This document shows, piece after piece, positions 22,024 to 50,389 of a stretch of DNA of 64,000 nt. Origin of the DNA: Actinomycetota bacterium (GTDB lineage: Bacteria; Actinomycetota; UBA4738; HRBIN12). Every line of letters begins with the position of its first letter. Position 1 is the stretch's first letter. A model generated the notes under the pieces. The model did no database searches, was not told the origin of the DNA, and saw only the letters and a program-made list of their open reading frames with translations. A program made the position numbers and the translations under genes. The stretch covers positions 16,568-80,567 of the forward strand of contig JAXLTF010000013.1 in the NCBI GenBank assembly GCA_046330185.1. The letters run 5' to 3'.

Positions 22024-22086
22024 GCCTCCGGTTCTACCTCACTATCCGGCTGGACGCGACCACGCGCCGTCGACGATGCTGGGGCG

Positions 22087-22449
22087 ATGGAGGAGTCACC
22101 GAACGACCAGCCGGGCGCCGACGACCTCGCGCGGCCCGAGGGCCCGCCGGATCGCCCACGGTCCACGGGACCGGCGCACGAGGGGGCGCCGATCGGGATC
22201 GCGATCGGGTTCGTGTCCGCGATCGGGTTCGCCGGTCTCGCGTTCCTGATGGCGTTCGCGTTCTTCGCGGCGGTCGCGATCTACGCGCTCGTCAAGGCGA
22301 TCGGCGGCGGCGAGGGCTCGGGCAACGCGGTCGTGGTCGTCCTGACGACCGTGTTCCTGCTGACGCTGTTCGTCGCCCTGCTGCTCGTCGGGATCGGCAA
22401 GCTCGGCGGCTCGCTCTCACCGAAGAAGCGGCGCCGCGAGGACGCCTGA
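22087..22449 (+). CDS. hypothetical small membrane protein (120 aa)
   Basis: An ATG ORF with two clear TM helices ('IGIAIGFVSAIGFAGLAFLMAFAFFAAVAIYALV', 'VVVVLTTVFLLTLFVALLLVGIG') and a basic tail. Confidence 0.45.
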   Translation: MEESPNDQPGADDLARPEGPPDRPRSTGPAHEGAPIGIAIGFVSAIGFAGLAFLMAFAFFAAVAIYALVKAIGGGEGSGNAVVVVLTTVFLLTLFVALLLVGIGKLGGSLSPKKRRREDA

Positions 22450-26128: not shown

Positions 26129-26224
26129 CGTCTCCCTCCCGTCTGCTGAGCGGCCCGCTCCGCCCGCGCGGCCGGACGAGCCGCCCCGCGCGCGCGGGCA
26201 GCCTATAGCGTCGACGGGCACGGG

Positions 26225-26254
26225 TTGACGGGTCGGCGGTCCTTCGAGAATACT
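26225..26254 (+). promoter_or_regulatory. putative housekeeping-sigma promoter of the transketolase operon (TTGACG-N18-AATACT)
   Basis: -35 TTGACG is at 26225-26230 and a -10-like AATACT at 26249-26254. The extended -35 context GTTGACGGGT(C)GGCG recurs at 36265-36279. Confidence 0.35.
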
Positions 26255-26265
26255 GCCGCTCGTCA

Positions 26266-26286
26266 GTGAGCAGGTTATCTGCTCAC
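26266..26286. promoter_or_regulatory. perfect 8-5-8 palindromic operator GTGAGCAG-GTTAT-CTGCTCAC (site 1)
   Basis: Read directly. It lies between the putative promoter and the transketolase start. It shares the motif GCAGGTTATC / GTGAGCAGG with sites at 30069, 34818 and 36284. Confidence 0.65.
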
Positions 26287-26301
26287 CTTCTGACCGAGGG
26301 G

Positions 26302-27133
26302 GTGACCCACGGAGCTGGGAGCGGTATCCGAGCGAACGAGGTCGACCGACCTGGCCAAGCGGATCCGCCGCAGCGTGATCCGCATGGCGGCCGGCAAGGG
26401 CGAGGGATACGTCGGGCAGGGTCTGGACGCGGCGGACATCCTGGCCGTGCTCTTCGGCTCCGAGATGCGCTACGACCCCCTCGATCGGTCTCCGAGCACC
26501 GACCGCCTGATCTTCTCCGCCGGGCACTACTCGATCGGGCTCTGGGCCGCGCTGGCCGAGACCGGGCACCTCGAAGGCTACGACCTCGGGTCGTACGGGG
26601 CGGACGGCGCGACGCTGATCATGTCCACGCACGAGGGCCACCCGCCGCCGATCGAGCTGACCGGGGGGTCCCTCGCCCACGGGCTGGGGGTCGCGGCCGG
26701 CCTGGCGCTCGGGTACCGGATGAAGGGCCACGAGGCACGGATCTTCGCGTTCACGACCGACGGGGAGGTCCAGGAGGGCTCGACCTGGGAGGCCGCGATG
26801 TTCGCGGGATCTCAGCGGCTGGGCAACCTCGTGAACGTCGTGGACGTCAATCGCGTCCAGGCGGACGGCGACCTCGTGCTCGAGATCGAGCCGCATGCGG
26901 ACAAGTGGCGCGCGTTCGGCTGGTGGGCACAGGACGTGGACGGGAACGATGTCGGCGCGTTGCTGGCGGCGTTCGCCCGCGCTCGTGAGGTGACGGACCG
27001 TCCCAAGGCCGTCATCGCGCGGACGACGCTCGGGTTCGGCGTGCCGATGATCATGGAACGCGAGCGGAACCATTTCGTCCGGGTGGGCGACGACGAGTGG
27101 GACGAGGTCGCCAGGCAGCTCGAGGCCTCATGA
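26302..27133 (+). CDS. transketolase, N-terminal (ThDP-binding) subunit; a 1-nt indel follows the probable start
   Basis: 'GEGYVGQGLDAADILAVLF', 'SAGHYSIGLWAAL' and 'GSLAHGLGVAAGLAL...FTTDGEVQEGSTWEAAMFA' match split-transketolase N subunits. The conserved N-terminal 'TELGAVSERTRSTDLAKRIRRSVIRM' comes into frame with the GTG at 26302 only if the CCC run at 26306-26308 is CC. The start is uncertain because the ribosome-binding site is too close. Confidence 0.75.
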
Positions 27134-28107
27134 CGAACGTCTCGACGACGCCGGCGGGGGTCGACCCGGTCGCCCTGGCGAAGTCGGGGCCGGTCGGTCC
27201 GGCCCTGCTCGAGATCGGCGAGCGCCGCGCCGACGTCGTCGCCCTCTCCGCCGATGTGGCGGGCGTCACGGGGCTCACGCCGTTCTCCCAGGCCTTCCCG
27301 GACCGGTTCGTCAACGTCGGCATGGCCGAGGAGAACCTGATCGCCGTGGCGGTCGGGCTCTCGAAGGCGGGCTTCACGCCGGTCGCCACGACGTTCGCCG
27401 TGTTCGCGTCGCGCCGGGCGCTCGACCTGATCGCGATCCAGTGCGCGCTCAACCGAGCCAACGTCAAGATCGTCGCCGCCCTGCCGGGCATCTACTCGAC
27501 GTTCGGTCCCACGCATCAGGGGATCGACGATCTCGCCCACATGCGCGCGCTCCCCAACATGACCGTGATCGACCCCTGCGACAACGCCGAGATGGCCGAG
27601 GCTCTGGCGGCGACGGTCGAGCTCGAGGGACCGGTCTACCTGCGCCAGCTGCTCGGCCGCGAGACGGCCGACGTGGACCGGGCCGGTCACGCGTTCCGGA
27701 TCGGACCGGCGCAGCTGATCCGCGACGGCGGCGACGTCGGGATCGTGACGAGCGGCATCATGGTCCGGAGGTCGCTCGACGCCGCACGGGCGCTCGCGGA
27801 TCGCGGCATCGAGGCGGCGGTCCTGAAGGTCTCGACCCTCAAGCCGTTCGACGGCGAGGCCGTCCTCGAGCTGGCTCGCGGTGTCGGCTCGCTCGTCACC
27901 GCCGAGAACCACTCCGTGATCGGCGGCCTCTTCTCGGCCGTGTCCGAGGTGCTCGCGCGCGCCGGGACCGGCGTGCCGGTTCGACCCGTGGGCGTGCGAG
28001 ACGAGTTCTGCTCGTTCGGGTCCAACGCCTACGTGGCCGAGCGCCACGGGCTCACTGCCGACGCCGTCGTGAACGCGGTCGAGGACGCGATCCGGACGCG
28101 CGGGTAG
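27130..28107 (+). CDS. transketolase, C-terminal (pyrimidine-binding) subunit
   Basis: 'FPDRFVNVGMAEENLIAVAVGLS', 'GPTHQGIDDLAHMRALPNMTVIDPCD' and 'VTAENHSVIGGL'. The ATG overlaps the upstream stop (ATGA). Confidence 0.85.
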   Translation: MTNVSTTPAGVDPVALAKSGPVGPALLEIGERRADVVALSADVAGVTGLTPFSQAFPDRFVNVGMAEENLIAVAVGLSKAGFTPVATTFAVFASRRALDLIAIQCALNRANVKIVAALPGIYSTFGPTHQGIDDLAHMRALPNMTVIDPCDNAEMAEALAATVELEGPVYLRQLLGRETADVDRAGHAFRIGPAQLIRDGGDVGIVTSGIMVRRSLDAARALADRGIEAAVLKVSTLKPFDGEAVLELARGVGSLVTAENHSVIGGLFSAVSEVLARAGTGVPVRPVGVRDEFCSFGSNAYVAERHGLTADAVVNAVEDAIRTRG

Positions 28108-28121
28108 AACCCCGATCGGCC

Positions 28122-29114
28122 TCAGGCCCTGGCGACGACCGAGGCGACGATGGCGTCCGACCTTGGCAGGTACGCGTCCTCGAGCGGCGGGCTGAACGGC
28201 GTCGGGACGTCCGGGGAGGCCACCCTCCACAGCTCGTCCAGCTCACCCCAGCACGTCTCGACGATCGCCGCCATGACCTCCGACGCCCAACCGCCCGTCC
28301 GCGGACCCTCCTCGACCACGACCACCCGGCCGGTCTTCACGGCCGAAGCCGCGAGGGTCTCGGTGTCCATCGGACGGAGGCTCCGAAGATCGATCACCTC
28401 GGCGTCGACGCCGTGCTCCCGGAGCAGCACCTCGGCCGCCTCGAGCGCATCCCCCACGCCCCGCATCGCCGCGACGACCGTGAGATCTGCGCCGGACCGC
28501 GCGACGGATGCGCCGCCGAGGGGCATCTGCTCGTCGCTCCATCGAGGACCCTTCGACGAGTAGAGCATCTTGTGCTCCATGAAGACCACCGGGTGCTCGT
28601 CGAGGATGGCCGCCCGCAGCAGGCCGTACGCCGACGCCGGATCGCTCGGCGCCACGATCTTCAACCCCGGAACCCCGAGCAACCACGAAGCCGGCACCTG
28701 CGAGTGCATGGCCCCCATCCTCGCGCCGGCGCCGACGGCGCAACGGACGACCATCGGCACGGTGCCCTGTCCCGACGAGACGAACGCGTACTTGGCCGCC
28801 TGGTTGATCAGGGCGTCCAGCGCGAGCGGCAGGAAGTCCGCGAACATGATCTCGACGACCGGCCTGGAGCCGGTGACCGCGGCTCCGAAGCCCGCCCCAG
28901 CGAGCGCCATCTCCGAGATGGCCGTATCGATCACGCGACGCGCCCCGAACCGGTCGGCGAGACCCCTCGTGACCTGGAACACGCCCCCCGCCGCGCCGAC
29001 GTCCTCTCCCAGCAGGATCACCGCCGGGTCCTCCTCCATCGCGTCGCTCAGCGCGGCGTGGAGCGCCTCGCGAACCGAGACGAGCTCGCCCATCCCGCTC
29101 AGGGCCGCCCCCAC
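28122..29114 (-). CDS. ThDP-dependent 2-oxoacid/acetoin dehydrogenase E1 component, beta subunit
   Basis: 'DPAVILLGEDVG..GGVFQVTRGLADRFG..RVIDTAISE' and 'VVVVEEGPRTGGWASEV' match E1-beta. Confidence 0.85.
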   Translation of the reverse strand: MGAALSGMGELVSVREALHAALSDAMEEDPAVILLGEDVGAAGGVFQVTRGLADRFGARRVIDTAISEMALAGAGFGAAVTGSRPVVEIMFADFLPLALDALINQAAKYAFVSSGQGTVPMVVRCAVGAGARMGAMHSQVPASWLLGVPGLKIVAPSDPASAYGLLRAAILDEHPVVFMEHKMLYSSKGPRWSDEQMPLGGASVARSGADLTVVAAMRGVGDALEAAEVLLREHGVDAEVIDLRSLRPMDTETLAASAVKTGRVVVVEEGPRTGGWASEVMAAIVETCWGELDELWRVASPDVPTPFSPPLEDAYLPRSDAIVASVVARA

Positions 29115-30058
29115 GATCCGGGGGGCACGGGGTAGGGATCCTCGAAGGCCGCGCGGACGGCCTCATCGATCTCCGCCTGGACGCCCGCCTCGACCGCATC
29201 CAGCTCGCCCGCAACCGCACCCTCGTCGATGAGTCGAGCGCGTTCCTGCGCGACCGGATCTCGCGCGCGCCACGATGCCACCTCGTCGTCCGGCTGGACC
29301 GGGATCGGATCGGCCCGGCTGTGCGGCACGAACCGATAGGTCTCGGCCTCCACGAACGCGGGGGGACCGCCGGACCTGATGCGCCCGAGCAGCGTCGTCG
29401 CCAGCCCGCGGACCGCGCGCACATCCATGCCGTCCACCCGGTGCGTGTCGATGCCGAACGCCTCGGCGCGGGCGCGGATCGTCCCGGCCGTCACCACCCC
29501 CGTGCGCGTGTACTCGCTGTACAGGTTGTTCTCGCAGACGTACAGGACGGGCAGCGAAGCGGTCTTCGCCAGGTTGAGGCATTCCAGGAAGTACCCCTGG
29601 TTCACGGCGCCGTCCCCGAAGAACGCGATCGCCGCCGCGGAGCGATCCCGAAGGGAGATGGCCGCTCCCGTCGCGGCGGCGATGCTGCCCCCCACGATCC
29701 CGAACGACCCCAGCAGCCGATGCTGGCGCGCCACGATGTTCATCGAGCCCGCGAGGCCGCCGCAGACCCCCGTGCGTCGGCCGAGCATCTCGGCGACGAG
29801 TGCCCGCGGAGGCACGCCGCGCGCCAGAGCATGGCCGTGGCCCCGGAACGTGCACGCCACCCAGTCGTCGGGTCCCACGGCCACCCCCACACCGACGCTC
29901 ACCGCCTCCTGACCGGTGGCCAGGTGAACGGCCCCCTCCAGCCCCGCGGAGAGCTGGAGCCGGCGGATCTCCTCCTCGAAGCGGCGAGCCATCACGAGCC
30001 GATCGAACAGGTCGAGGGTGGGTTCCACGCGAACCGGCACGGGGTCGGATGGTAGCAT
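29099..30058 (-). CDS. ThDP-dependent 2-oxoacid/acetoin dehydrogenase E1 component, alpha subunit
   Basis: 'RRFEEEIRRLQ', 'TFRGHGHALARG' and 'AFFGDGAVNQGYFLECLNLAKTASLPVLYVCENNLYSEYT' (ThDP motif). It overlaps the beta-subunit gene by 16 nt. No E2 or E3 gene is in the window. Confidence 0.85.
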   Translation of the reverse strand: MLPSDPVPVRVEPTLDLFDRLVMARRFEEEIRRLQLSAGLEGAVHLATGQEAVSVGVGVAVGPDDWVACTFRGHGHALARGVPPRALVAEMLGRRTGVCGGLAGSMNIVARQHRLLGSFGIVGGSIAAATGAAISLRDRSAAAIAFFGDGAVNQGYFLECLNLAKTASLPVLYVCENNLYSEYTRTGVVTAGTIRARAEAFGIDTHRVDGMDVRAVRGLATTLLGRIRSGGPPAFVEAETYRFVPHSRADPIPVQPDDEVASWRARDPVAQERARLIDEGAVAGELDAVEAGVQAEIDEAVRAAFEDPYPVPPGSWGRP

Positions 30059-30068
30059 CCGCCTCAGG

Positions 30069-30084
30069 TCAGCAGGTTAGCTGA
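30069..30084. promoter_or_regulatory. operator-like palindrome TCAGCAGGTTAGCTGA (site 2) in the 45-bp divergent E1-alpha/VOC intergenic region
   Basis: Read directly. It contains GCAGGTTAGC, which matches GCAGGTTATC of sites 1 and 3 at 9 of 10 positions. The outer arms TCAGC/GCTGA are complementary. Confidence 0.5.
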
Positions 30085-30103
30085 AGAGTCTGGAGGGCGA
30101 ACC

Positions 30104-30571
30104 GTGGCACGGGTCACCGGCGTGGACCACTTCGGCGGCACGGTAAGCGACATCGACGCTTCGTTGCGCTTCTGGCGTGATCTGCTGGGGCTCGAGGTGG
30201 TCGGGCGAGGGGTCATCGAATGGGAGCACATCGACCGGCTCGTGGCACTGCGCGACACGAAGATCGAATGGGTGGAGCTCCGCGTGCCCGGGGGAACCGC
30301 CGTCGAGCTCATGCGGTATCACCGCCCGACGGGCGCCCCCGTGCCGGTCGGGCAGGAGAACGAACCGGGTCGCTCGCACCTGTCGTTGCTCGTCGACGAC
30401 CTAGTTGCGACGCTTGCCGAGCTGCGCGCCGCAGGCGTCCGGTCGCGCACGGAGGAGGCGGTGGCGATGGAGCGGGGAGCGTACACCGGAGGGAAGGGCG
30501 CATACGTCTTCGACCCCGACGGGATCCAGATCGAGCTCATCGAGCGCGCCAGGCCGGACGCCCGAGGCTGA
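30104..30571 (+). CDS. VOC-family (glyoxalase/bleomycin-resistance/dioxygenase) protein
   Basis: 'VDHFGGTVSDIDASLRFWRDLLGLEVV' ... 'SHLSLLVDDLVATLAELRAAGV' ... 'YVFDPDGIQIELIE' forms paired beta-alpha-beta-beta-beta modules. A GGAGGG ribosome-binding site precedes the GTG. Confidence 0.75.
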   Translation: MARVTGVDHFGGTVSDIDASLRFWRDLLGLEVVGRGVIEWEHIDRLVALRDTKIEWVELRVPGGTAVELMRYHRPTGAPVPVGQENEPGRSHLSLLVDDLVATLAELRAAGVRSRTEEAVAMERGAYTGGKGAYVFDPDGIQIELIERARPDARG

Positions 30572-30586
30572 GGAGGACGAGCCAGG

Positions 30587-31303
30587 ATGGAAGATCCTCC
30601 CCCGACCCTGAAGATCGGCCAGGCTCCTCGGCAGAAGCTCGCCGAGACCGTCGCCCAGCAGATCCTGTCGGCGGTCCACGATCTCCCCGCGGGAACGCGC
30701 CTGCCTTCCGAGCGCGAGCTGACCCAGCAGCTCGGCTGCGGCCGTTCGACGGTCAGGGAGGCGCTCAACGGGCTGGCGATGATCGGCGTGGTCGAGATCC
30801 GGCATGGCCAGGGCGTCTTCGTGACCGAGCCGCCGCCGATCCCGCTCGACGACGCCACCGGCGAGCCCAAGGTCATCACGCCCGAGCTGCGCGAGGCGCG
30901 CCGGATCGTCGAGGTCGAGCTGGCGCGCCTCGCGGCGGAACGACACACGCCCGAGGATCTCGCGGCGATGCAGGAGGTCCTCGACCGGCACCGCGCGCGC
31001 ATGACCGACCTCGAGCGGCCCGTCGTCGAGGCGTCCGAGTTCCACCTGCTCGTCGCCGATGCCGCGCGCAACCGCGTGCTGGCGGGCGTCGTGCGCCCCT
31101 TCTTCCGGCTCGCGTTCGAGCTGGGGCCGCAGCTCTACCAGACCACCGAGGGCTACGCGGCGTGGGAGCTCGACCAACACACGAGGATCCGCGAGGCGAT
31201 CGCGTCCGGCGACGGCGAGCTGGCCCGTCTGCGGATGCTGGAGCACGTCACGTCGATGGACCCGCACTACCGGGACGATCGTCCCAGCTCGAGCACCTCG
31301 TAG
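30587..31303 (+). CDS. GntR-family transcriptional regulator, FadR (FCD) subfamily
   Basis: The winged-HTH motif is 'LPSERELTQQLGCGRSTVREALNGLAMIGVVEIRHGQGVFV'. The all-helical C-terminal FCD-type domain contains 'EFHLLVADAARN' and 'HTRIREAIASGD'. Confidence 0.85.
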   Translation: MEDPPPTLKIGQAPRQKLAETVAQQILSAVHDLPAGTRLPSERELTQQLGCGRSTVREALNGLAMIGVVEIRHGQGVFVTEPPPIPLDDATGEPKVITPELREARRIVEVELARLAAERHTPEDLAAMQEVLDRHRARMTDLERPVVEASEFHLLVADAARNRVLAGVVRPFFRLAFELGPQLYQTTEGYAAWELDQHTRIREAIASGDGELARLRMLEHVTSMDPHYRDDRPSSSTS

Positions 31304-32949
31304 GCGCCCAGCGTTCGGTCCGCCTCGAGGATCCCACCGACACGGACGTGCTGCTCGTCCGCCGTCAGGTTGACCAGCACCGGGTCCTGCAACTCGGTGG
31401 CGATCACCCGGACTCGGCGCGGCGCCGAGGAGGCCACCGATCGCAGACGACCGCCGGCACGAGCGGTCAGCAGTCCGATCGCGCGCTCCAGCCCGGCCGA
31501 GCGAAGGACCGTGCGGTCCAGCGCCTCGTGGAACGTGATCGACGCCGCTCCCCCTTCGGCGAGCGCGGCGGCCGACCCGATCGTCCAGGCGGCGCCGAAC
31601 GGATCCAGGGACCGCTCGTCGATCGGGCCATCCCCCGAGGGACCGTGCGGCGCGAGGGTCACGGGCGACACGACCACCGGCACCCCGTCCCATCGCCGGC
31701 TGAGCTGTCGCACCACCTGCGTCTGGACCTCGAGGGTCTCCACCATCCTCACCGCGTCGACGTCGTGGACCTGCGGGGTGATCGCCAGGGCGAGCACGTC
31801 GAGTCCTCCGGGGTCGGGCACGCTGCGGTTCAGCTCCGAGAAGTGCGATGCCGTGCCGCCCCCCACGACGAGGCCATCGAGGGCGGCTCCCCGGACGCCG
31901 GAGACGAACGCTCCACCCGCGGCCTCGCCGTTCCTCCGCAGGATCAGCAGCCGCGCCACGGGAAGCCCTCGGAGCGCATCGAGCCGTCCCAGGGGATCCG
32001 GCCCGTCGTCATCGACCAGGAGGGCCACCTCGAGCGGCAGGCCGCAGTCCCCGACGGTCGGACGAACGTCCCGGGCCGCCCCCGGGCCGTCCAGGACCAG
32101 CCGCAGGTGGCCGGGGTCGAGCGCGCGCACGCGCTCGGGATCGGACGGCCCTGTCGGCGCCGACAGCCCGACCGTTGGCGCGGTGCCGGCGGCGACGGGA
32201 CCGATCGTCACGGTCACCGCCGACCGGTCGCCCTCATCCTCCTCGACATCCGCGGGCGGCGGCCCGGCCACCCGGAGGCTCAGCCGTTGCCGGCATCGCT
32301 CCCCACGACGGATCGTCCGGGGAGCGGACGCCTCCAGCGGGGTCGGGTACGTCTTGAAGGAGGCGTCCGTCCAGTTCCGTTGATCCTCCAGCTCGAAGCC
32401 GCGAGGCTCTCCCTCGAACGAGAAGGTGGCCTCCACCCCCGATCCGGGGAACGTCACCTCCAGGCGGGTGAACGCCGGGATCAGGGCCCGGTAGTGGCCC
32501 TGCACGAGCGGCTGCGGGGCGATCGCCTCTTCGAAGACGCCGTTCGTCGCCGGTCCCACCCCCGAGGCCGTGAAGCGCGCCCCGACGTACGCCTCCCACG
32601 GGTGGAGCACGCACACGCCGATCCGGCGGGCGACGAAGTCCTCGAGGGCCTCGCCCTCCATCTCGCACTCGACCGACCCTGCCCCCATCCGCACGGCTAG
32701 CCGGCAGAGGAACCGGTCCCCGCCGAACACCGATGCGATCCGGAGCTCGGCGGTGCTCCCCGATCCGGCGTCGTCCACCTGGACGATGCGCTGGCCGAGG
32801 GTCCCCCAGCCCTCGTCGCGCACGGTGACATGGATCGACGAGGCGATCGGCTGGGACCCCCAACGCACGTCGGTCAGGGCCGTGCCCAGCCGTTCCGCCG
32901 AGAACCCGCCCGCCCTCACGGGGTGCCGTGCCGAGCGAGCACGCTCCAC
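31267..32949 (-). CDS. hypothetical protein, 560 aa, no family recognised
   Basis: A long ORF with ordinary composition, overlapping the upstream PLP-enzyme gene by 34 nt (probably one operon). Notable strings are 'FELEDQRNWTDASFKTYPTPL', 'GGGTASHFSELNR' and 'ITPQVHDVDAVRMVETLEVQ'. The exact start is uncertain. Confidence 0.55.
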   Translation of the reverse strand: MERARSARHPVRAGGFSAERLGTALTDVRWGSQPIASSIHVTVRDEGWGTLGQRIVQVDDAGSGSTAELRIASVFGGDRFLCRLAVRMGAGSVECEMEGEALEDFVARRIGVCVLHPWEAYVGARFTASGVGPATNGVFEEAIAPQPLVQGHYRALIPAFTRLEVTFPGSGVEATFSFEGEPRGFELEDQRNWTDASFKTYPTPLEASAPRTIRRGERCRQRLSLRVAGPPPADVEEDEGDRSAVTVTIGPVAAGTAPTVGLSAPTGPSDPERVRALDPGHLRLVLDGPGAARDVRPTVGDCGLPLEVALLVDDDGPDPLGRLDALRGLPVARLLILRRNGEAAGGAFVSGVRGAALDGLVVGGGTASHFSELNRSVPDPGGLDVLALAITPQVHDVDAVRMVETLEVQTQVVRQLSRRWDGVPVVVSPVTLAPHGPSGDGPIDERSLDPFGAAWTIGSAAALAEGGAASITFHEALDRTVLRSAGLERAIGLLTARAGGRLRSVASSAPRRVRVIATELQDPVLVNLTADEQHVRVGGILEADRTLGAYEVLELGRSSR

Positions 32950-34037: not shown

Positions 34038-34050
34038 CCCGGGCCGCCGG

Positions 34051-34794
34051 CTACAGCTCCGGCCCGACGGGGGTGATCATCAGCTCGCTGACCGCCACCC
34101 CGGCGGGCTGGGCGAGGGCGAACCCGACCGCCCTTGCCACGTCGTCGACGCTGAGCGCCGCGAACCGCTCCAGCTCGCCGAGGCCTTCGTCGGTCTCGTG
34201 AAGGAGCGGGGTGTCGACCATCCCGGGTTCGATCATCGTCACGCGGACGTCGTGCGGAAGGGCCTCCTTCCGCAGCGCCCAGCCGAGTCCCACGACCCCC
34301 CACTTGGTCGCGATGTAGACGGGCTCGCCCACCCAGGTCTGCCGGCCGGCGATCGACGCCATCAGGACGATCTGCCCGCTGCGCCGCGCCTTCATGTGCG
34401 GGAACACGGCCCGCACGGTGTGCAGCACCCCCAGCAGGTTCGTCTCGACGACCCGACGCCACAGCTCGGGGTCGCCCTCGTCCAGCGACGAGTAGCTCCC
34501 GATCCCCGCGTTGGCCACCGTGAAGTCGATCACGCCGAACGCGCGCAGGCATGCGTCGGCCAGATCCCGCACGCTCGGCCACTCGCGAACGTCGGTGACG
34601 CAGGTCTCCACCTCGCCGCCCGCGTCCCGCAGGCGAGCCGCGGTGGCCGACAGACGTCCCGGCTCCGAATCCGAGAGCATCACCCGTGCGCCGTGGGCGG
34701 CCAGGAGCGCGGCGCAGGCCTCGCCGATCCCTCGCCCGGCGCCGGTCACGATCCCGGCCTTCCCGCTCAGGGCCCCGAAGCCGTCCTCGGCCAT
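34051..34794 (-). CDS. short-chain dehydrogenase/reductase (SDR)
   Basis: The ATG at 34794 follows a GGAGGGTGGAGG ribosome-binding site. Motifs are 'GKAGIVTGAGRGIGEA' (TGxxxGxG), 'NAGIG' and 'YIATKWGVVGL' (YxxxK). Confidence 0.85.
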   Translation of the reverse strand: MAEDGFGALSGKAGIVTGAGRGIGEACAALLAAHGARVMLSDSEPGRLSATAARLRDAGGEVETCVTDVREWPSVRDLADACLRAFGVIDFTVANAGIGSYSSLDEGDPELWRRVVETNLLGVLHTVRAVFPHMKARRSGQIVLMASIAGRQTWVGEPVYIATKWGVVGLGWALRKEALPHDVRVTMIEPGMVDTPLLHETDEGLGELERFAALSVDDVARAVGFALAQPAGVAVSELMITPVGPEL

Positions 34795-34817
34795 CCTCCA
34801 CCCTCCGTAGATGTATG

Positions 34818-34847
34818 GTGAGCAGGCCAGATGATAACAGTGGGCTC
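34818..34847. promoter_or_regulatory. operator-like element (site 4) in the divergent SDR / GS-like promoter region
   Basis: GTGAGCAGG (34818-34826) is identical to the left half-site of site 1. GATAAC at 34833-34838 gives GTTATCAT on the minus strand, as in site 3. On the minus strand TATCAT lies ~37 nt upstream of the SDR ATG. Confidence 0.45.
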
Positions 34848-34908
34848 GGAGCGGCGGAACCCGGGATCCGGGTGGTATCCTCCGGCCCCGTTCAAGGGGG
34901 ATGGAGCG

Positions 34909-36207
34909 GTGGAGCTGGCGGACACGGAACGGGTCCTGACCTCGGTAGATACGGTCGAATGCTGCTTCCCGGACACCTGGGGCATCTTCGTGGGCCGCCG
35001 GATGCCGACCGAGGCGTTCCGCCGCGCGATCGAGCGGGGCCTGAGCATGCCGAACGCACCCTTCGCCTGGAACGTGCTCGGCGACATCGACGCCACCCCG
35101 TTCGCGAGCGCCGACACGGGCTTCCCGAACATCCACGTCGCCCCCGACCTCACGACCCTACGCCTGGCACCGTGGGCCGACCGCACGGCGTTCTGCCTCA
35201 TGGACACGTTCGTGGCGCCCGAGGGCGACCCCAACCCCATGGACTCCCGCGGCATCCTGCGCAGGGCCGTCGGGGCACTGTCCGCCCAGGGTTACGAGGC
35301 ATGGACGGCCCCGGAGCTCGAGTTCTACCTGTGCACCGAGCTCGAGCGGCCCGCGTTCGACGACCACCGATGCTGGTCCATGACGCGCGGGGCGGAGTTC
35401 GAGCCCGTGCTGGGCGAGATCAGGGCCACCCTCCTCGCCGCGGGCGTGCCGGTCGAATCGAGCCAGACCGAGGGCGGACCTGGCCAGTTCGAGATCAACG
35501 TGTCGCCGTCCGCGCCCATCCAGGCCGCCGATCACGCCGCGATCCTCAGGTACGTCGTCAAGCTGATCGCGCGGCGCCACGGCCTGCTGGCCACCTTCAT
35601 GCCGATGCCGTTCAACGACGCGGAGGGCAGCGGCCTGCATATCCATAACAGCCTGCGTCACACCGATCTTCAGGAGAACGTCTTCGCCGTCGACGACGGA
35701 GTGTTCCGGGCCTACCTCGCGGGCACGCTCGCCCACATGATCGACACGACCGCGGTGAACCTCCCCAACGTCAACGCCTACCGCCGCCTGCGCGACTACA
35801 CGTTCGCGCCGAACCGCGTCTGCTGGGGCCAGGACAACCGGACGGTCGCCATCCGGATCCCGTCGGGCGACCCGGACGCTCGCCGGCTGGAGATCCGCAC
35901 GGCCTCCGCGGATGCCAACCCCTACCTCGTACTCGCCGGCATCGTCGCCGCCGGGTCCGACGGGGTCGCCCGGTCGCTCGACCCTCCGCCCCCCGTCGAG
36001 GGCGACGCCTACCTGGACGGTGAGCTCGAGCGGGTCCCGGCGACGCTGGAGGCGGCCCTCGACGCCTTCGCCGGGTCGGCCTTCTGCAAGGAGGTCTTCG
36101 GGGAGGTGTTCGTCGAGACGTTCACGCTGCTCGGCCGGCGCGAGGCCGCCGCCTTCGCCGCCCACGTGACGGACTGGGAGCGCGATCGCTACCTGGAACC
36201 GTCCTGA
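34909..36207 (+). CDS. glutamine-synthetase-family gamma-glutamyl-amine ligase (PuuA/GlnA3-4-like)
   Basis: 'GPGQFEINVSPSAPIQAADHAAILRYVVKLIARRHGLLATFMPMPFNDAEGSGLHIHNSL' and 'NRTVAIRIPSGDPDARRLEIRTASADANPYLVLAGIV' match the GS catalytic domain. A GTG at 34909 follows an AAGGGGGA ribosome-binding site. The track ORF begins at 34831. Confidence 0.8.
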   Translation: MELADTERVLTSVDTVECCFPDTWGIFVGRRMPTEAFRRAIERGLSMPNAPFAWNVLGDIDATPFASADTGFPNIHVAPDLTTLRLAPWADRTAFCLMDTFVAPEGDPNPMDSRGILRRAVGALSAQGYEAWTAPELEFYLCTELERPAFDDHRCWSMTRGAEFEPVLGEIRATLLAAGVPVESSQTEGGPGQFEINVSPSAPIQAADHAAILRYVVKLIARRHGLLATFMPMPFNDAEGSGLHIHNSLRHTDLQENVFAVDDGVFRAYLAGTLAHMIDTTAVNLPNVNAYRRLRDYTFAPNRVCWGQDNRTVAIRIPSGDPDARRLEIRTASADANPYLVLAGIVAAGSDGVARSLDPPPPVEGDAYLDGELERVPATLEAALDAFAGSAFCKEVFGEVFVETFTLLGRREAAAFAAHVTDWERDRYLEPS

Positions 36208-36230
36208 GCGGCCGAGGCGCCCGTATCCAT

Positions 36231-36260
36231 AGGAAGACCGTCTCGAGGAAGACCGTCTCG
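36231..36260. repeat. perfect 15-bp tandem direct repeat (aggaagaccgtctcg x2), each unit containing the palindrome AGAC-c-GTCT
   Basis: Read directly at 36231-36245 and 36246-36260. The repeat ends 5 nt upstream of the TTGACG hexamer at 36266. Confidence 0.85.
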
Positions 36261-36265
36261 CTGCG

Positions 36266-36299
36266 TTGACGGGTGGCGTGGTAGGCAGGTTATCATGCC
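36266..36299 (+). promoter_or_regulatory. putative promoter (TTGACG-N19-TATCAT) overlapped by operator site 3 (GGCAGGTTATCATGCC)
   Basis: The -35 context GTTGACGGGTGGCG parallels 26224-26239. GGCAGGTTATCATGCC (36284-36299) has complementary GGCA/TGCC arms, and its downstream flank CACCTGACC parallels CACCTTCTGACC after site 1. Confidence 0.5.
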
Positions 36300-36351
36300 A
36301 CCTGACCACCGCGGCGGTCGCGGATGGTGCGCCGATCGGGGAGGGGGAGAG

Positions 36352-37548
36352 ATGGGCGACGCGCAGGATCGCGAGCGCAGGTTCGTGCTCGATCGCAGGC
36401 GGTTCCTGGGACTCACGGGAGGCGCGGCCGCGGCGGCCTTCCTCGCCTCGTGCGGGCTCTCGGGCGACGACGGCGCCACGACCACCGGTCCCAGCCCCAC
36501 GGGGTCCACGGGCGCTGCCTCCCCGAGCCCGCTCCCGCCGGTGGGCGGCCCCTTCAACTACTACACCTGGGAGGGCTACGACACCGCCGGCGACTTCACG
36601 AAGTGGTTCAAGGACAACGGGATCGAGCTGAACACGAAGTACATCTCCGGCCCCGAGGAGGTGCCGACCGTCCTCAAGGGCCCCGGCGGTGACCAGTGGG
36701 ACGCCTCGTACGGCGACAACGTCGTGCTGCTCTACTTCAAGGAGCTGGGCATCCTCACGCCGCTGACCGAGGAACAGGTGCCCGGTCTCGCCGGGCTGAT
36801 GCCCGCCTTCCAGGTGCCTCCGTTCAAGAACGAGGACGGCACGTACAACGCCGTCCCCTGGACCTGGGGGTTCTCCGGGGTGACGTACCGCACCGACCGG
36901 GTGCCGGAGCCGACCAGCTGGCACGACCTGCTGGATCCGAAGTACGAGGGGCGGGTCTCGACGATCGACAGCGCGCTGAACAACGTCGCGCTCGGATCGC
37001 TCGCGGTGGGGATCGACCCCGACACGCTCACCTCGGACCAGCTGAACGGCGAGGTGAAGGAGTACCTCACGTCCCTGGTCGGCCAGATCAAGGCGCTGGC
37101 GCCCACGATCGGAGACTCGATCTCGCTCCTGCTCTCGGGCGACGTCGACTACATGGTCGTCGGGCTGGCGTTCATGGACTCGGTCACGGCGGACGAGGGC
37201 ATCCCCACCGAGACGATCGTCCCGTCGGAGGGCGCGATCGGCTGGAACGACTCGGTGTTCCTCACGCCCACCGCGCCGAACCCGCAGAACGCGCTGGCGT
37301 TCATGAACCACCTGGTCGATCCCGCGGCGAACGCGGAGGCGAACAGCAGCATCCTCCAGGGGCCCGGCGTCCAGGCGGCGATCCCGCTCCTGTCGAAGGA
37401 GGCGGCGGCGCAGTATCCCTTCGACGACATCGACAACTACCTCTCCAACACGCTGACGTTCAACCAGGGGTTCCCGCACGAGCCCGACGGCGATCGCGCC
37501 ACTTACGACGAGGTCCTCGCCCTGTGGGAGGAGGTCAAGGGATCCTGA
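36352..37548 (+). CDS. PotD/PotF-family periplasmic substrate-binding lipoprotein with a Tat-type signal
   Basis: The ATG follows a GGGAGGGGGAGA ribosome-binding site. 'RRFVLDRRRFLGLTGGAAAAAFLASCG' contains twin arginines and a lipobox. The mature part ('NYYTWEGYD...VPWTWGFSGVTYR...') resembles polyamine/amine-binding proteins. Confidence 0.75.
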   Translation: MGDAQDRERRFVLDRRRFLGLTGGAAAAAFLASCGLSGDDGATTTGPSPTGSTGAASPSPLPPVGGPFNYYTWEGYDTAGDFTKWFKDNGIELNTKYISGPEEVPTVLKGPGGDQWDASYGDNVVLLYFKELGILTPLTEEQVPGLAGLMPAFQVPPFKNEDGTYNAVPWTWGFSGVTYRTDRVPEPTSWHDLLDPKYEGRVSTIDSALNNVALGSLAVGIDPDTLTSDQLNGEVKEYLTSLVGQIKALAPTIGDSISLLLSGDVDYMVVGLAFMDSVTADEGIPTETIVPSEGAIGWNDSVFLTPTAPNPQNALAFMNHLVDPAANAEANSSILQGPGVQAAIPLLSKEAAAQYPFDDIDNYLSNTLTFNQGFPHEPDGDRATYDEVLALWEEVKGS

Positions 37549-37567
37549 ACCGGATGCCGACCTAGGC

Positions 37568-38434
37568 GTGTCGCTCTCCCGGCGCCTGGCCGCGTTCCTG
37601 CTCACCCCGCTCGGGGCACTGCTCCTGTTGGCCGTCCTGGTCCCGACGGCCATGTTGTTCGCGTTCTCGTTCTTCCACCTCCGGCTGCTGGAGATCGTGC
37701 CCGGCGCGAGCCTCGACAACTACGAGCGGGTCGTCACGACGTCGTTGTACCGGCGTTACGCGCTGAACACGCTGCTGATCGCCGGCCCAACCGCGCTCCT
37801 GTCGACGATCGGGGGATACGTGCTGGCGTACTTCCTCGTCTTCCGCGCCCGCCGCTCGCGCGCCGTGCTGCTGGTCGCGATCGTCATCGCCCTGATGGGG
37901 AGCTACCTCGCGTTGATCTACTCCTGGCGGACGCTCTCGGGCGAGAGCGGGATCTTCAACTCGCTGCTGCAGGCGCTGAACCTGACCGAACGGCCGCTCG
38001 GGATCCTGCTGTTCTCGCGCACCGCCGTCATCGTCGCGGAGGTGAACTTCTTCCTGCCGTTCACGACCCTGGTGCTGTTCTCGAGCCTGTCCTCGATCTC
38101 GCCGGAGCTCGAGCCGGCCGCGCGCGACCTGGGGGCATCCCGGTCCATGACGCTCCGCAGGATCCTCCTGCCGCTGTCCGGATCCGCGATCTTCGGAGCG
38201 CTGCTGTTCGTCTTCTTCCTGTCCGCGGGCGACTACATCACGCCGGTCTTCCTGGGAGGCATCGGGTCCAGCGCGATGATGGGCACCTTGATCGCTGACC
38301 AGCTCACGACCGGGCTGAACTACCCGCTCGGCGCAGCCATGGCGTTCGTGATGCTCGCGTGCTTCCTGGTCCTCGTCGTGCTGCTCAGGCTCGGTATGCG
38401 CGCCGGCGGATTGCTCCCGAGGCACACGGGATGA
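37568..38434 (+). CDS. ABC transporter permease (PotB-like)
   Basis: Six TM segments and the EAA-type loop 'ELEPAARDLGASRSMTLRRILLPL'. Confidence 0.8.
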   Translation: MSLSRRLAAFLLTPLGALLLLAVLVPTAMLFAFSFFHLRLLEIVPGASLDNYERVVTTSLYRRYALNTLLIAGPTALLSTIGGYVLAYFLVFRARRSRAVLLVAIVIALMGSYLALIYSWRTLSGESGIFNSLLQALNLTERPLGILLFSRTAVIVAEVNFFLPFTTLVLFSSLSSISPELEPAARDLGASRSMTLRRILLPLSGSAIFGALLFVFFLSAGDYITPVFLGGIGSSAMMGTLIADQLTTGLNYPLGAAMAFVMLACFLVLVVLLRLGMRAGGLLPRHTG

Positions 38435-39252
38435 CCCGGCGGCCGCATCTGCTGACGATCGTCGTGGCGGTGCTGATCGTCTTCATCTACCTGCCGCTCG
38501 TGGTCGTGGTCATGTACGGGCTGAACTCCGGATCCAACCTGAGCTGGCCCCCGCACGGCGTCTCCTTCAGGTGGTTCCGCTTCATCTTCGGCACGGCGCA
38601 GTTCCGATCGGGCCTTCGAACCAGCGCGATCGCGGCGACGGCGACCGCTCTGATCGCCGGAGCGATCGGGACCGCAGCGGCGTTCGCCTTCACCCGCCGC
38701 CCCTCCCGCGCGGCGGGCTGGCTCGAGAGCGGCTCGCGGCTGCCCGTGATGCTGCCGCCGCTGTTCATCGGGATCTCGCTCGTCGCCGCGATGAAGGCCT
38801 TCGCGATCGACCCATCGATGTACACGATCGTCGCCGGTCACGTGATCGTCACGACGCCGTTCGTGATCCTGATCGTCGGCGCGCGCCTGCGCCACTACGA
38901 CGTGGCGGTCGAGCAGGCGGCGAGGGACCTGGGGGCCCGGCCGTCGATGGTGCTGCGGAGGATCACGGCGCCCTTGATCGGCCCCTCGGTGGTCGGGGCC
39001 ATGATGATCGCGTTCGCGATCTCTTTCGATGAGGTCCTGATCACCAACTTCACGTCGGGCACGCAGGTGACCCTTCCCCTGTTCGTCCTGTCGCGGCTCC
39101 GCCGTACGATCGACCCGTCGATCAACGCGGTGGCCACCATCCTGCTGATCGTTCCCTGGATCGCGGTCGCCCTGTCCTTCGCGTTCCAGCGACGCCGCTC
39201 GTCCCGTCAGGCGGTCAGGGATCAGGCCGAGGCGCTGGCGAGGGTGGCATGA
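38431..39252 (+). CDS. ABC transporter permease (PotC-like)
   Basis: The ATG overlaps the upstream stop (ATGA). The N-terminus is 'MTRRPHLLTIVVAVLIVFIYLPLVVVVMYGLN' and the EAA loop is 'AVEQAARDLGARPSMVLRRITAPL'. Confidence 0.8.
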   Translation: MTRRPHLLTIVVAVLIVFIYLPLVVVVMYGLNSGSNLSWPPHGVSFRWFRFIFGTAQFRSGLRTSAIAATATALIAGAIGTAAAFAFTRRPSRAAGWLESGSRLPVMLPPLFIGISLVAAMKAFAIDPSMYTIVAGHVIVTTPFVILIVGARLRHYDVAVEQAARDLGARPSMVLRRITAPLIGPSVVGAMMIAFAISFDEVLITNFTSGTQVTLPLFVLSRLRRTIDPSINAVATILLIVPWIAVALSFAFQRRRSSRQAVRDQAEALARVA

Positions 39253-40391
39253 CCCCGCATCCGTCGACCGGAACGGTGTCGATCCGAGGCGTGACGAAGC
39301 ACTTCGGAGAGGTGGCGGCGCTGCACACGCTCGACCTCGACATCCCTGCGGGGTCCTTCTTCAGCCTCCTCGGGCCGAGCGGCTGCGGCAAGACGACCCT
39401 GCTCCGGATCATCGCCGGGCTCGAGTCGCCGGACGCGGGCTCGGTGCAGAGCGACGGCGAGGACATCACTGCGCGCCCGCCGGAGCGCAGGCCGTTCAAC
39501 ATGGTGTTCCAGCACTACGCGCTGTTCCCGCACATGACGGTGGCCGACAACATCGGGTTCGGGCTCACCACGCAGTCGAAGCAGCAGCGCGAGACCAGGG
39601 ATGAGCGCAAGCGACGGGTCCTCGAGATGCTCAGCCTGGTGAGCCTCGAAGGGTTCGGGCACCGATACCCGTCAGAGCTCTCGGGCGGGCAGGCGCAGCG
39701 CGTGGCCGTGGCCCGGGCCCTGGTGAACCGGCCGCGCGTGCTGCTCCTCGACGAGCCGCTCAGCGCGCTCGACCGGAACGTGCGTTTCGCGCTCCGGGAG
39801 GAGCTCCTGCGGATCCATCAGGAGCTCGGCACGACGTTCGTGTTCGTCACGCACGACCAGGACGAGGCGCTGAGCATCTCGCAGCTGGTCGGGGTCATGA
39901 ACGACGGCAGGCTCGAGCAGGTCGCCGATCCCCAGACCGTCTACCGATCTCCGGCAACCCTGTTCACCGCCCGCTTCATCGGTGCCGGGTCCTTCGTGCC
40001 CGCGACCGTGCTGTCCCGGGGCATCGGAACCGCTGAGGTCGAGGTTGCCGGTCACCGGTTCAGAGCAACCGACGCCGGCACCGACGGCTCCGCCACGGCC
40101 CAGGTGCTCCTGCGACCCGAGGAGCTCGAGGAACGGGAGCGCGGCCGCGGGGTACTCGAGGGCGTGGTCGAATCCTGCTCGTTCTTCGGCTCGCACTTCG
40201 AGGTCCTGACCCGGACCTCCGTCGGCCCGTGTCGCCTGCGCCTCCGCGCGCCCAGGTCGCCCGGTGAGACCGTCTCGATCGGCTGGCCCGAGAGCGCCGG
40301 GATCGCCTACCGCGACGACCCGGGCGGACCCGCCCCGCAGCCAGGCGAGACTCCGACAACGGGGCACGCCACACCACCGGTCGTCGGATAG
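39249..40391 (+). CDS. ABC transporter ATP-binding protein (PotA-like, with a C-terminal TOBE-type domain)
   Basis: 'GPSGCGKTTLLRIIAGLE', 'LSGGQAQRVAVARAL', 'LLLDEPLSALD' and 'VTHDQDEAL'. It overlaps the upstream permease gene by 4 nt. Confidence 0.85.
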   Translation: MTPHPSTGTVSIRGVTKHFGEVAALHTLDLDIPAGSFFSLLGPSGCGKTTLLRIIAGLESPDAGSVQSDGEDITARPPERRPFNMVFQHYALFPHMTVADNIGFGLTTQSKQQRETRDERKRRVLEMLSLVSLEGFGHRYPSELSGGQAQRVAVARALVNRPRVLLLDEPLSALDRNVRFALREELLRIHQELGTTFVFVTHDQDEALSISQLVGVMNDGRLEQVADPQTVYRSPATLFTARFIGAGSFVPATVLSRGIGTAEVEVAGHRFRATDAGTDGSATAQVLLRPEELEERERGRGVLEGVVESCSFFGSHFEVLTRTSVGPCRLRLRAPRSPGETVSIGWPESAGIAYRDDPGGPAPQPGETPTTGHATPPVVG

Positions 40392-43968: not shown

Positions 43969-44029
43969 ACCGAGCGCCCGACGCCTCCCCGCCTCCGCGG
44001 GGCGCTGGCTCGAGCGGCCCTGGGGCCGC

Positions 44030-45245: not shown

Positions 45246-45250
45246 GTGCG

Positions 45251-46365: not shown

Positions 46366-46370
46366 GCCGG

Positions 46371-50385: not shown

Positions 50386-50389
50386 TCGA

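Follow-up and report, generated by a model that had tools for sequence, protein, structure and literature searches.

A conserved, operator-linked gene cluster of uncultured soil Actinomycetota joins a gamma-glutamylation-type ligase to sugar-type enzymes

Which compound is handled by a gene block in which a glutamine synthetase (GS)-like ligase and an amine-type importer stand beside two thiamine diphosphate (ThDP) enzymes and a protein of the apionate lactonase family? The question is raised by positions 26223-40391 of a 64-kb stretch of contig JAXLTF010000013.1 from an Actinomycetota bacterium; the whole 64,000-nucleotide stretch is called the window below. A first-pass annotation, made from the letters alone, had listed the genes of this block and could name no substrate for them. 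We confirm the block as a pathway of uncultured soil Actinomycetota that is conserved, co-regulated and without an assignment to date, and in which gamma-glutamylation-dependent amine catabolism would be joined to sugar-type chemistry. This combination has not been described before, while every component family is known. The reading that we favour, tentatively, is a regulon for breaking down a small nitrogen compound that is cationic and hydroxylated, most probably an amino sugar, an amino-sugar acid or an amino-polyol. Our observations concern the parts, their co-conservation, the shared operator, the direction of import, the intact catalytic cores and the altered substrate sites; from these we infer the chemistry.

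The window has a G+C content of about 72 %, and genes were selected by third-position GC bias before being checked with Pfam and NCBIfam scans. This gave 14 genes in six transcription units: tktN-tktC (plus strand), E1beta-E1alpha (minus), VOC-gntR (plus), ApnL-like/PLP/SDR (minus; a pyridoxal phosphate enzyme and a short-chain dehydrogenase/reductase), the GS-like gene (plus) and potD-potB-potC-potA-like genes (plus). Genes within each unit are closely packed or translationally coupled: tktN/tktC, potB/potC and potC/potA each overlap by ATGA, and the PLP and ApnL-like genes by GTGA. Orthologs were used to set the start codons of the GS-like gene (GTG 34909), the potD-like gene (ATG 36352), the SDR gene (ATG 34794) and the ApnL-like gene (GTG 32919). 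The first-pass annotation had counted sixteen genes, but its own list sums to 14; that list and its six units were recovered, from the tkt promoter (26225) to the stop codon of potA (40391). Position 26223, at which it had the block begin, marks a promoter-like site and no gene start. A literature search found no paper describing this gene combination and no NCBIfam equivalog matched near its cutoff, in agreement with the earlier statement that no described pathway fits.

Is the block a unit in other genomes? One genome from each of 185,579 species was scanned; this gave 68 loci, denoted by L numbers, onto which the 14 window proteins were mapped. The gene order of the window recurs in about 17 species-level MAGs (metagenome-assembled genomes). 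The full cluster occurs in about a dozen uncultured 'Actinomycetes' MAGs, where most proteins are 65-85 % identical to those of the window; overall protein identity in orthologous clusters is 50-85 % and the flanks are unrelated. In three distant relatives, each on a long MAG contig, the 14 genes are all present with order and orientation unchanged, and the flanks are wholly different. A near-identical strain (L080; 98.2 % DNA identity over 20 kb) shares the flanks of the window. Whether the gene set co-occurs elsewhere, as the first-pass annotation proposed to check, is answered by strict co-conservation of a discrete module in unrelated surroundings.

The variants define the core. Six loci (L008, L009, L011, L015, L025 and L047) have the whole cluster minus E1 alpha/beta. 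A second form, here called the APC variant, was found in three Solirubrobacterales MAGs (L041, L045, L054) and a JGI soil contig (L075); its altered arrangement comprises tktN-tktC, an M20 hydrolase, a second GntR, the GS-like gene, an APC permease, SDR, PLP, ApnL-like, GntR and VOC genes, and it has neither PotABCD nor E1. Its permease is of amino-acid/amine type, with weak similarity to ethanolamine and gamma-aminobutyrate (GABA) permeases, and its M20 hydrolase most closely resembles glutamate carboxypeptidase. The core is therefore the transketolase, the GS-like ligase, the SDR, the PLP enzyme, the ApnL-like protein, the VOC protein, GntR and an amine-type transporter. Because the E1 pair is missing from the six orthologous loci and from the APC variant, we class it as accessory and remove it from the core set in which it had been placed.

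The block had also been called an island. That word holds for a portable module. It does not hold for a horizontal-transfer island, which we rejected: the GC content of the block (0.68-0.73) is that of its flanks (0.69-0.75), the 64-kb window has no tRNA genes and the flanking open reading frames (ORFs) scanned include no mobile-element genes. In one MAG (MFD09964.bin.1.67), two contigs (L018 and L067) each appear to carry a copy of the cluster, reflecting either a duplication or a bin of two strains.

Is the block also one regulon? The regulator and the sites concerned are the following; the operators are given without strand.

26225..26254, plus strand: sigma-70-like promoter of the tkt operon (TTGACG-18-AATACT), directly 5' of O1, with its -35/-10 arrangement kept in orthologs
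26266..26286: operator O1, the perfect palindrome GTGAGCAG-GTTAT-CTGCTCAC, just 3' of the tkt promoter
30068..30084: operator O2 (TCAGCAGGTTAGCTGAA), in the 45-63 bp divergent E1alpha/VOC region
30587..31303, plus strand: regulator of the GntR/FadR subfamily (Pfam GntR winged helix-turn-helix plus FCD), presumed repressor of the four operators
34816..34840: operator O3 (GGTGAGCAGGCCAGATGATAACAG), a related fourth site in the divergent SDR/GS region
36281..36296: operator O4 (GTAGGCAGGTTATCATGCC), overlapping the -10 region of the potD promoter

The motif GCAGGTTAKC has exactly three occurrences in the 64 kb, compared to none in 100 shuffles, and all three (26270, 30072 and 36285) fall in promoter regions of the cluster. 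O1 is kept 5' of tktN in L001, L002, L003, L009, L015 and L047. O2 is kept in L001, L002 and L003, where it adjoins a conserved GATGCTACCAT element, and L018 has a variant with two mismatches. The O3 block TGTTATCATCTGGTCTGCTCACCATA is kept in eight orthologous loci, apart from single-base variants, and the O4 sequence GGTGGCATGATAACCTGCC in seven, with a GTCAAC -35 box upstream. The operator sequences thus hold their promoter positions in relatives whose proteins are 50-85 % identical, while the neighbouring intergenic DNA has diverged. The regulator itself is 68-85 % identical in intact PotABCD-type orthologs, 61-64 % in L068 and L074 (divergent or low-quality sequences) and 55-56 % in the APC variant. 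Because the operator footprint is conserved in all four promoter regions and the gntR gene lies inside the block, the straightforward reading is a single regulon controlled by one GntR/FCD repressor, which is predicted to bind at these operators. The related palindromic motif first noticed at four promoters, and taken as a sign of one regulon, accordingly resolves into three exact sites and one related site, conserved in relatives.

The convergent gntR and ApnL-like genes overlap at their 3' ends by 37 bp (31267-31303). Orthologs have overlaps of about 33-37 bp, for instance L001 at 11617-11653. The two transcripts may interfere with each other here, or the region may hold a terminator that serves both directions.

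In which direction does the substrate move, and what is done to it on arrival? Five genes bear on this.

34909..36207, plus strand: GS-family ATP-dependent ligase with a PuuA-type amine pocket, 432 aa from GTG (Pfam Gln-synt_C, 301 bits)
36352..37548, plus strand: PotD/PotF-family binding lipoprotein with a twin-arginine (Tat) signal (RRRFL...LASC) seen in the translation (Pfam SBP_bac_6/SBP_bac_1)
37568..38434, plus strand: PotB-like ATP-binding cassette (ABC) permease (Pfam/NCBIfam scans)
38431..39252, plus strand: PotC-like ABC permease, with an ATGA overlap with potB (Pfam/NCBIfam scans)
39249..40391, plus strand: PotA-like ABC ATPase with a TOBE domain, with an ATGA overlap with potC (Pfam/NCBIfam scans)

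The importer has the four-component architecture of a binding protein, two permeases and an ATPase. We take the ABC system for an importer because its PotD-family binding protein carries a Tat-lipoprotein signal, and the uptake first supposed from the PotD-type protein stands on this signal with its lipobox. The match to the PotD model is remote (53 bits compared to a cutoff of 582), and the best PDB match is Lmo0810, followed by PotD and PotF, from whose solved structures the protein is remote.

The GS-like ligase is below equivalog level for GGputSyn in NCBIfam (249 bits, cutoff 650), and its length of 432 aa is shared by most orthologs. In an alignment with E. coli GlnA and PuuA it keeps the metal ligands (E129, E131, E212, E220, H269, E357), the ATP/phosphate residues (R339, R344, R359) and the glutamate residue R321. 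Its ammonium site is replaced: D50 and S53 are Pro, Y179 is deleted and E327 is Phe, the corresponding states in PuuA being Pro, Val, a deletion and Tyr. Among nine aligned cluster-type and related sequences, position 50 is always non-acidic (Pro or Ala) and Y179 always deleted, while positions 53 (Pro, Ala, Ile) and 327 (Phe, Tyr) vary and never have the GS residues. Because the ammonium site is replaced in the manner of PuuA, we regard the protein as a gamma-glutamyl-amine ligase and not as a glutamine synthetase; with its catalytic core complete, it is predicted to be competent for an amine bigger than ammonia. The gamma-glutamylation to which the ligase had been said to point gains from this comparison. 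A more distant GS-like homolog (L076, 45 % identical) was uninformative as context, as it belongs to a P450/Rieske/hydrolase cluster of another kind.

A GS-family ligase with a linked amine importer and a local repressor is what is found in Puu of E. coli, GlnA2/GlnA3/GlnA4 of Streptomyces and Ipu/Pau of Pseudomonas. One explanation for the cluster is accordingly a Puu/GlnA4-type gamma-glutamylation of a simple amine such as a polyamine, ethanolamine or aminopropanol. The GS-like ligase, SDR and PotABCD would then be the pathway, and the ThDP, PLP and ApnL-like genes would process glycolaldehyde, aminoacetaldehyde or acetaldehyde. The PuuA-like pocket, the PotD-family importer and the weak resemblance of the APC permease to ethanolamine and GABA permeases all agree with it. 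The Puu-type pathways differ from the cluster in their gamma-glutamyl-aldehyde dehydrogenase and PuuD-type hydrolase of amidotransferase fold, neither of which was found in the window cluster, any ortholog or any variant. Scans of the block, of ten upstream ORFs and of six immediately flanking ORFs gave no aldehyde dehydrogenase, PuuD-type hydrolase, E2 or E3, and the absence of the first two from the block had been correctly noted at the outset. The cluster also differs from these pathways in what it adds, namely a split transketolase, an ApnL-family protein, a fold-type III PLP enzyme, a VOC protein and sometimes E1 alpha/beta. With the GGputSyn and PotD scores both far under their cutoffs, we consider a simple amine an unlikely substrate.

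The same evidence bears on whether the cluster consumes or makes its compound. It is conceivable that it is a small biosynthetic cluster, yielding a gamma-glutamylated or beta-hydroxy-amino-acid metabolite from two-carbon (C2) units derived from ThDP chemistry. GS-like ligases, D-threonine aldolase (DTA)-type enzymes and E1 or transketolase C2 donors do occur in natural-product pathways. Against this stand the importer with its lipoprotein signal, or an uptake permease, and the FadR-type repressor with operators on every unit. Genes for nonribosomal peptide synthetases, polyketide synthases, ATP-grasp enzymes, exporters and tailoring enzymes were not found in the cluster, and the flanks are unrelated housekeeping genes. 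We hold biosynthesis to be very improbable.

What, then, are the two ThDP systems doing beside an amine ligase? They are encoded by the first two units.

26297..27133, plus strand: N-terminal (ThDP/PP) subunit of a split transketolase, tktN (Pfam Transketolase_N, 115 bits; best PDB match 6yak, the N chain of a split transketolase)
27130..28107, plus strand: C-terminal (Pyr + C) subunit of the split transketolase, tktC, with an ATGA overlap (Pfam Transket_pyr and Transketolase_C; PDB 6yaj, 226 bits)
28122..29093, minus strand: E1 beta-like ThDP subunit, accessory (Pfam Transket_pyr/Transketolase_C; pyruvate dehydrogenase (PDH) E1-beta subfamily, 306 bits compared to a cutoff of 321)
29099..30040, minus strand: E1 alpha-like ThDP subunit, accessory (Pfam E1_dh, 188 bits; TIGR03182, 275 bits compared to 394)

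The closest solved relative of the transketolase is the split enzyme of Carboxydothermus. In E. coli TktA numbering the window enzyme keeps H66, H100, D155, N185, H261, E411, F434, F437 and H473, while H26 is Tyr, R358 is Ser, S385 is Val, H461 is Ala or Pro and D469 is Phe. In transketolases, R358, S385 and H461, together with R520, bind phosphate, and D469 recognises the 2-hydroxyl of the acceptor; of the phosphate residues R520 alone may be retained. The replacements are invariant in PotABCD-type orthologs with intact sequences. The APC-variant enzyme keeps H26Y and D469F and differs at 358, 385 and 461. Judged by these residues, the enzyme should be ThDP-active and unable to bind a sugar phosphate in the usual way. 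The first description as a split transketolase is thus right as to the split enzyme and does not extend to a standard sugar-phosphate enzyme, as the phosphate and 2-hydroxyl residues are replaced. The cluster has no kinase. Because of this absence, and because the phosphate and 2-hydroxyl residues are replaced while ThDP and catalytic residues are kept, the route would run without phosphorylation.

A catabolic split transketolase acting on a sugar-like substrate with a non-phosphate handle is known from the sulfo-TK (SqwGH) pathway of sulfoquinovose, a likeness at the level of concept. Our cluster is unlike that pathway in having no sulfosugar genes, and the handle here would be a gamma-glutamyl-amine.

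Two observations on tktN stand apart. In L041, L045 and L054 it also lacks the H100 motif (GHP has become GGG), a further departure from canonical transketolase. In the window, no canonical start codon is found where the orthologs of about 279 aa begin (near 26297), and the first canonical in-frame start is GTG 26375. The frame has a TGA followed by CCC-ACG-GAG-CTG, with a Shine-Dalgarno sequence GAGGGGG 6 nt before the ACG; a nearby GTG at 26266, the only one there, is out of frame. Translation may start from ACG or CTG, or from GTG 26375 or ATG 26384, which would shorten the N-terminus. We rejected a sequencing error as the cause, as the independent assembly L080 (98.2 % identical) has the same frame arrangement.

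The E1 pair is of PDH or acetoin type and below the equivalog cutoffs. E1 alpha has an alternative start at ATG 30058 and a GDG...NN ThDP motif in its translation, and its best PDB match is human PDH E1-alpha (153 bits). No E2 or E3 was found in the window cluster or its orthologs, nor in the flanking ORFs scanned, which agrees with the first-pass view of an E1 pair on its own.

The largest protein of the block had been left as a 560-aa orphan. It is 550 aa long and belongs to the Apionate_lact family.

31267..32919, minus strand: Apionate_lact-family (ApnL-like) protein, 550 aa from GTG 32919, with a GTGA overlap with the PLP gene (NCBIfam ApnL, 126 bits compared to a cutoff of 750)

A direct Pfam scan of the 560-aa ORF gave no family, and the assignment comes from the NCBIfam model together with the Pfam domains of relatives: PF25837/PF25838 (Apionate_lact_N/M) are precomputed on all relatives, including a 98 %-identical metagenomic copy (P0001). 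The next closest sequence is about 52 % identical. Ten relatives score 163-340 bits against the ApnL model (NF049900, cutoff 750). A PDB sequence search gave no match, so that only the fold search is informative. An AlphaFold2 model built with 19 sequences (pLDDT 90, pTM 0.91) has a mutarotase-like beta-sandwich at the N-terminus, then a TIM barrel and, at the C-terminus, a beta domain. Residues H116, E186, E188, D189, H281, R283, E307, E372 and H395 are invariant in the family. Foldseek relates the model to GH36/GH97 alpha-galactosidases (E about 1e-13 to 2e-13), among them a galactosamine-specific GH36, at a global TM score kept low by domain placement. The protein is thus predicted to have a carbohydrate-type architecture. 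Its sole characterised relative, by NCBIfam family name, is a sugar lactonase. Compared with its cluster neighbours (65-85 % identical) the ApnL-like protein is only 48-54 % identical across orthologs, which indicates faster evolution despite its translational coupling to the PLP gene.

An ApnL-family protein and a split transketolase are reportedly hallmarks of apiose pathways. The cluster could then be a variant of a D-apiose or branched-sugar route, its lactonase being ApnL and its transketolase of AptAB type, that merely lies beside unrelated amine genes. JGI labels the orthologs 'D-apionolactonase', and the Apionate_lact/split transketolase pair and the dehydrogenase-plus-lactonase logic do recall the D-apiose pathways (ApnL; AptA/AptB, the apulose-4-phosphate transketolase). 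The cluster differs from them in its amine-type transporter, in a transketolase devoid of a phosphate site and in having nitrogen enzymes (GS-like, PLP) as its core. The other apiose genes (apiose dehydrogenase, an oxidoisomerase, a kinase, ApnO, OiaK, an RLP gene, a sugar transporter or sugar-type binding protein) were not found in the cluster. Neither the ApnL score (126) nor that of any retrieved relative (340 at most) reaches the cutoff of 750; apulose 4-phosphate carries a phosphate, yet residues that would bind one are missing from the transketolase; and transketolases beside other ApnL-like genes (L042, L052, L064) are just 34-41 % identical to ours. With the amine genes sharing both operator and synteny, we regard an apiose pathway as the least probable explanation of those considered.

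The three remaining enzymes are the following.

30104..30571, plus strand: VOC/glyoxalase-fold protein (Pfam Glyoxalase, 59 bits; no equivalog)
32916..34037, minus strand: fold-type III PLP enzyme of the D-threonine-aldolase/D-Ser-dehydratase family, 'GYAP' subfamily (Pfam Ala_racemase_N and D-ser_dehydrat)
34051..34794, minus strand: classical SDR oxidoreductase, 247 aa (Pfam adh_short, 170 bits; best PDB match clavaldehyde dehydrogenase 2jah, 134 bits)

The VOC protein is present in every cluster variant. We rejected reading a substrate from the closest structures of the SDR, the binding protein and E1, these relatives being generic or remote.

The PLP enzyme matches DTA 4v15 (184 bits), D-3-hydroxyaspartate aldolase 6qkb (163 bits) and dehydratases (about 90 bits), and scores 206 bits against the BhcC equivalog (cutoff 690). 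It resembles D-threonine aldolase, BhcC and the D-Ser and D-threo-3-hydroxyaspartate dehydratases in its two-domain fold-type III structure and its PLP lysine, in a KAHKC motif aligned with K59 of 4v15. Unlike D-threonine aldolase and BhcC, it has neither metal ligand: H347 and D349 of 4v15 are replaced by Tyr and Pro in a PGYAPT motif, while all four aldolase structures have P-x-H-x-D-P-T. PGYAPT is common to the window, to every cluster ortholog and to the PLP partners of ApnL-like genes elsewhere, so this group appears to be a distinct and probably metal-free subfamily. Aldolase activity, implied by the early label of a D-Thr-aldolase-like enzyme, is not to be assumed with both metal ligands replaced.

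The PLP/ApnL-like pair also occurs without ligase or transketolase (44-50 % identity for the GYAP enzyme, 30-37 % for the ApnL-like protein). One such pair (L040) has as neighbours a Dpp-type ABC importer, a DeoC/LacD aldolase, an FGGY sugar kinase and a PTE-family protein. Another (L058) lies with a SorC sugar regulator, an SDR, a DUF4432 protein, an RPE-family epimerase and a 2-hydroxyacid dehydrogenase. Two more (L081, L082) share a VOC protein, a 2-hydroxyacid dehydrogenase and an FGGY kinase, and L082 additionally has a xylose-isomerase-fold protein, an RPE-like epimerase, a DeoC aldolase, an APC permease, an SDR and RidA. From these contexts the pair would be a portable unit feeding a sugar-type carbon route, and in our cluster the phosphate-independent transketolase, with or without E1, stands where the sister loci have kinase, aldolase and epimerase. 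A simple amine is hard to reconcile with a strictly conserved, coupled ApnL-like and PLP core that elsewhere sits in sugar clusters.

A 722-aa protein at a contig start (P0084; L073 1213-3381; D-ser_dehydrat plus Apionate_lact) joins the C-terminal domain of the PLP enzyme to the ApnL-like protein. We rejected it as a natural fusion: because the contig is from long reads, E1-alpha is also broken there and the two genes normally overlap, it is most likely a frameshift artefact. Similar split genes are seen in the Microflora Danica long-read MAG loci L006, L013, L025, L067 and L068.

Could the PLP enzyme be the entry point? In that case a D-beta-hydroxy-alpha-amino acid or an amino-sugar acid, for example a 2-amino-2-deoxy-aldonate, would be imported as such and deaminated by the PLP enzyme to a 2-oxo acid. 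E1, transketolase or both would decarboxylate this acid, and the GS-like ligase would detoxify or scavenge a side-product amine. The D-amino-acid-specific fold-type III family, the RidA and 2-hydroxyacid dehydrogenase genes adjoining a sister module, an E1-type 2-oxoacid enzyme free of E2/E3 and the APC amino-acid permease of one variant are all consistent with such a scheme. PotD-family proteins, by comparison, normally bind carboxylate-free amines, and the PLP enzyme is nearer to aldolases (184 bits) than to dehydratases (90 bits). The scheme also gives a minor role to a GS-like gene that belongs to the core of every variant and is driven from an operator-controlled promoter of its own, and a major one to a dispensable E1. 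We therefore doubt it.

We return to a catabolic regulon for a hydroxylated amine of sugar type, the reading given at the start. A carbohydrate-type substrate is suggested because the ApnL-family protein combines a mutarotase-like domain with a TIM barrel resembling GH36/GH97 enzymes, including a galactosamine-specific one. As in non-phosphorylative oxidative sugar pathways, an SDR, a lactonase-family protein and a C2/C3-acting enzyme are united in one operon with no kinase. The cluster is unlike those pathways in that a PLP enzyme replaces the dehydratase, which would imply an amino group at C2. The amino-polyol, amino-ketose or hydroxy-amine first suggested as substrate is compatible with all this; our evidence narrows the choice somewhat, towards amino sugars or amino-sugar acids as the candidate class.

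The pathway could proceed as follows. The compound would be taken up by the PotD-type ABC importer, or by the APC permease in one variant. The PuuA-like GS-family ligase would gamma-glutamylate its amine at the expense of ATP, trapping and protecting it, and in a route with no kinase the glutamyl group may replace the phosphate handle. The SDR would then oxidise a hydroxyl or hemiacetal, and the ApnL-family carbohydrate-fold protein would hydrolyse or open the ring. Glutamate would be removed next, in the APC variant by the M20 hydrolase, a role proposed because this protein most resembles glutamate carboxypeptidase. The metal-free DTA-like PLP enzyme may cleave the C-N or the C-alpha/C-beta bond of the resulting alpha-amino compound. 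A non-phosphorylated aldehyde, ketose or 2-oxo acid would be handled by the phosphate-independent transketolase, aided by E1 alpha/beta where present, and the VOC protein may serve as an isomerase or epimerase or as a detoxifier of a reactive keto-aldehyde. GntR would bind the four GCAGGTTAKC-type operators that overlap or follow the promoters, until an intermediate releases it. Any specific order of these steps is much less probable than the regulon as such.

Several points weigh against this reading. The homolog searches and the one-genome-per-species scan gave MAG and metagenome sequences only, with no cultured carrier among them, and within the window no enzyme is assigned to glutamyl removal. 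PotD-type proteins are best known for polyamines. The closest solved relative of the SDR acts on a primary alcohol/aldehyde pair and not on a sugar hemiacetal, and Phe at the D469 position of the transketolase would suit a non-hydroxylated aldehyde better than an aldose; both features fit the simple-amine explanation. With the aldolase/dehydratase metal site of its family replaced, the PLP enzyme probably does not reveal its reaction type through homology. Finally, because the sister loci have no GS-like ligase, glutamylation would not be intrinsic to the PLP/ApnL-like chemistry, which makes the step order uncertain.

A bolder form of the proposal is a phosphate-free 'glutamyl-sugar' pathway. 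The gamma-glutamyl group on the amino group of an amino sugar or amino-polyol would itself be the recognition handle that phosphate is in ordinary sugar catabolism, and the remodelled transketolase would cleave or build N-glutamylated keto-sugars directly. We think this improbable as it stands. If true, it would add a new substrate class for transketolase and a new pairing of a metal-free DTA-like PLP enzyme with an ApnL-fold hydrolase.

The surroundings of the cluster are of other kinds. Upstream lie genes for a secreted endonuclease/exonuclease/phosphatase-family protein, an ABC ATPase and a 5'-3' exonuclease; downstream are an EamA transporter and a GH25 lysozyme and, farther away, cell-envelope and cofactor genes. 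Elsewhere in the window, a single 805-aa ORF (3618-6035) carries a GT1-family glycosyltransferase domain and a GH130 domain of the beta-mannoside phosphorylase type, and a TldD/PmbA metallopeptidase pair is encoded by neighbouring genes at 14501-17234 (minus strand). A strong positive AT skew on the plus strand at 19500-22200 (0.26-0.47) coincides with two minus-strand membrane-protein genes, for a GT87-like and an acyltransferase_3-like protein. We rejected it as a special element, the skew being compositional and due to these two genes. At 44000-57500 few ORFs pass the GC3 filter, apart from a 1046-aa ORF (54422-57562, minus strand), and this region is unlike the rest of the window in coding density or gene type.

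What would such a pathway mean for its carriers? A large part of the organic nitrogen of soils is in amino sugars and other hydroxylated amines, and the carriers are known from metagenomes only; the operators, the binding protein and the ligase permit in vitro tests that need no culture of the host. Three families in the cluster keep their catalytic core and lose the canonical substrate residues, giving a phosphate-site-less transketolase, a metal-less DTA-like enzyme and a protein distant from ApnL. The first of these could supply a natural transketolase for substrates that are neither phosphorylated nor alpha-hydroxylated, which is of biocatalytic interest. Solving the pathway would give a function to hundreds of metagenomic proteins now mislabelled as 'glutamine synthetase', 'D-apionolactonase' or 'D-serine deaminase-like'.

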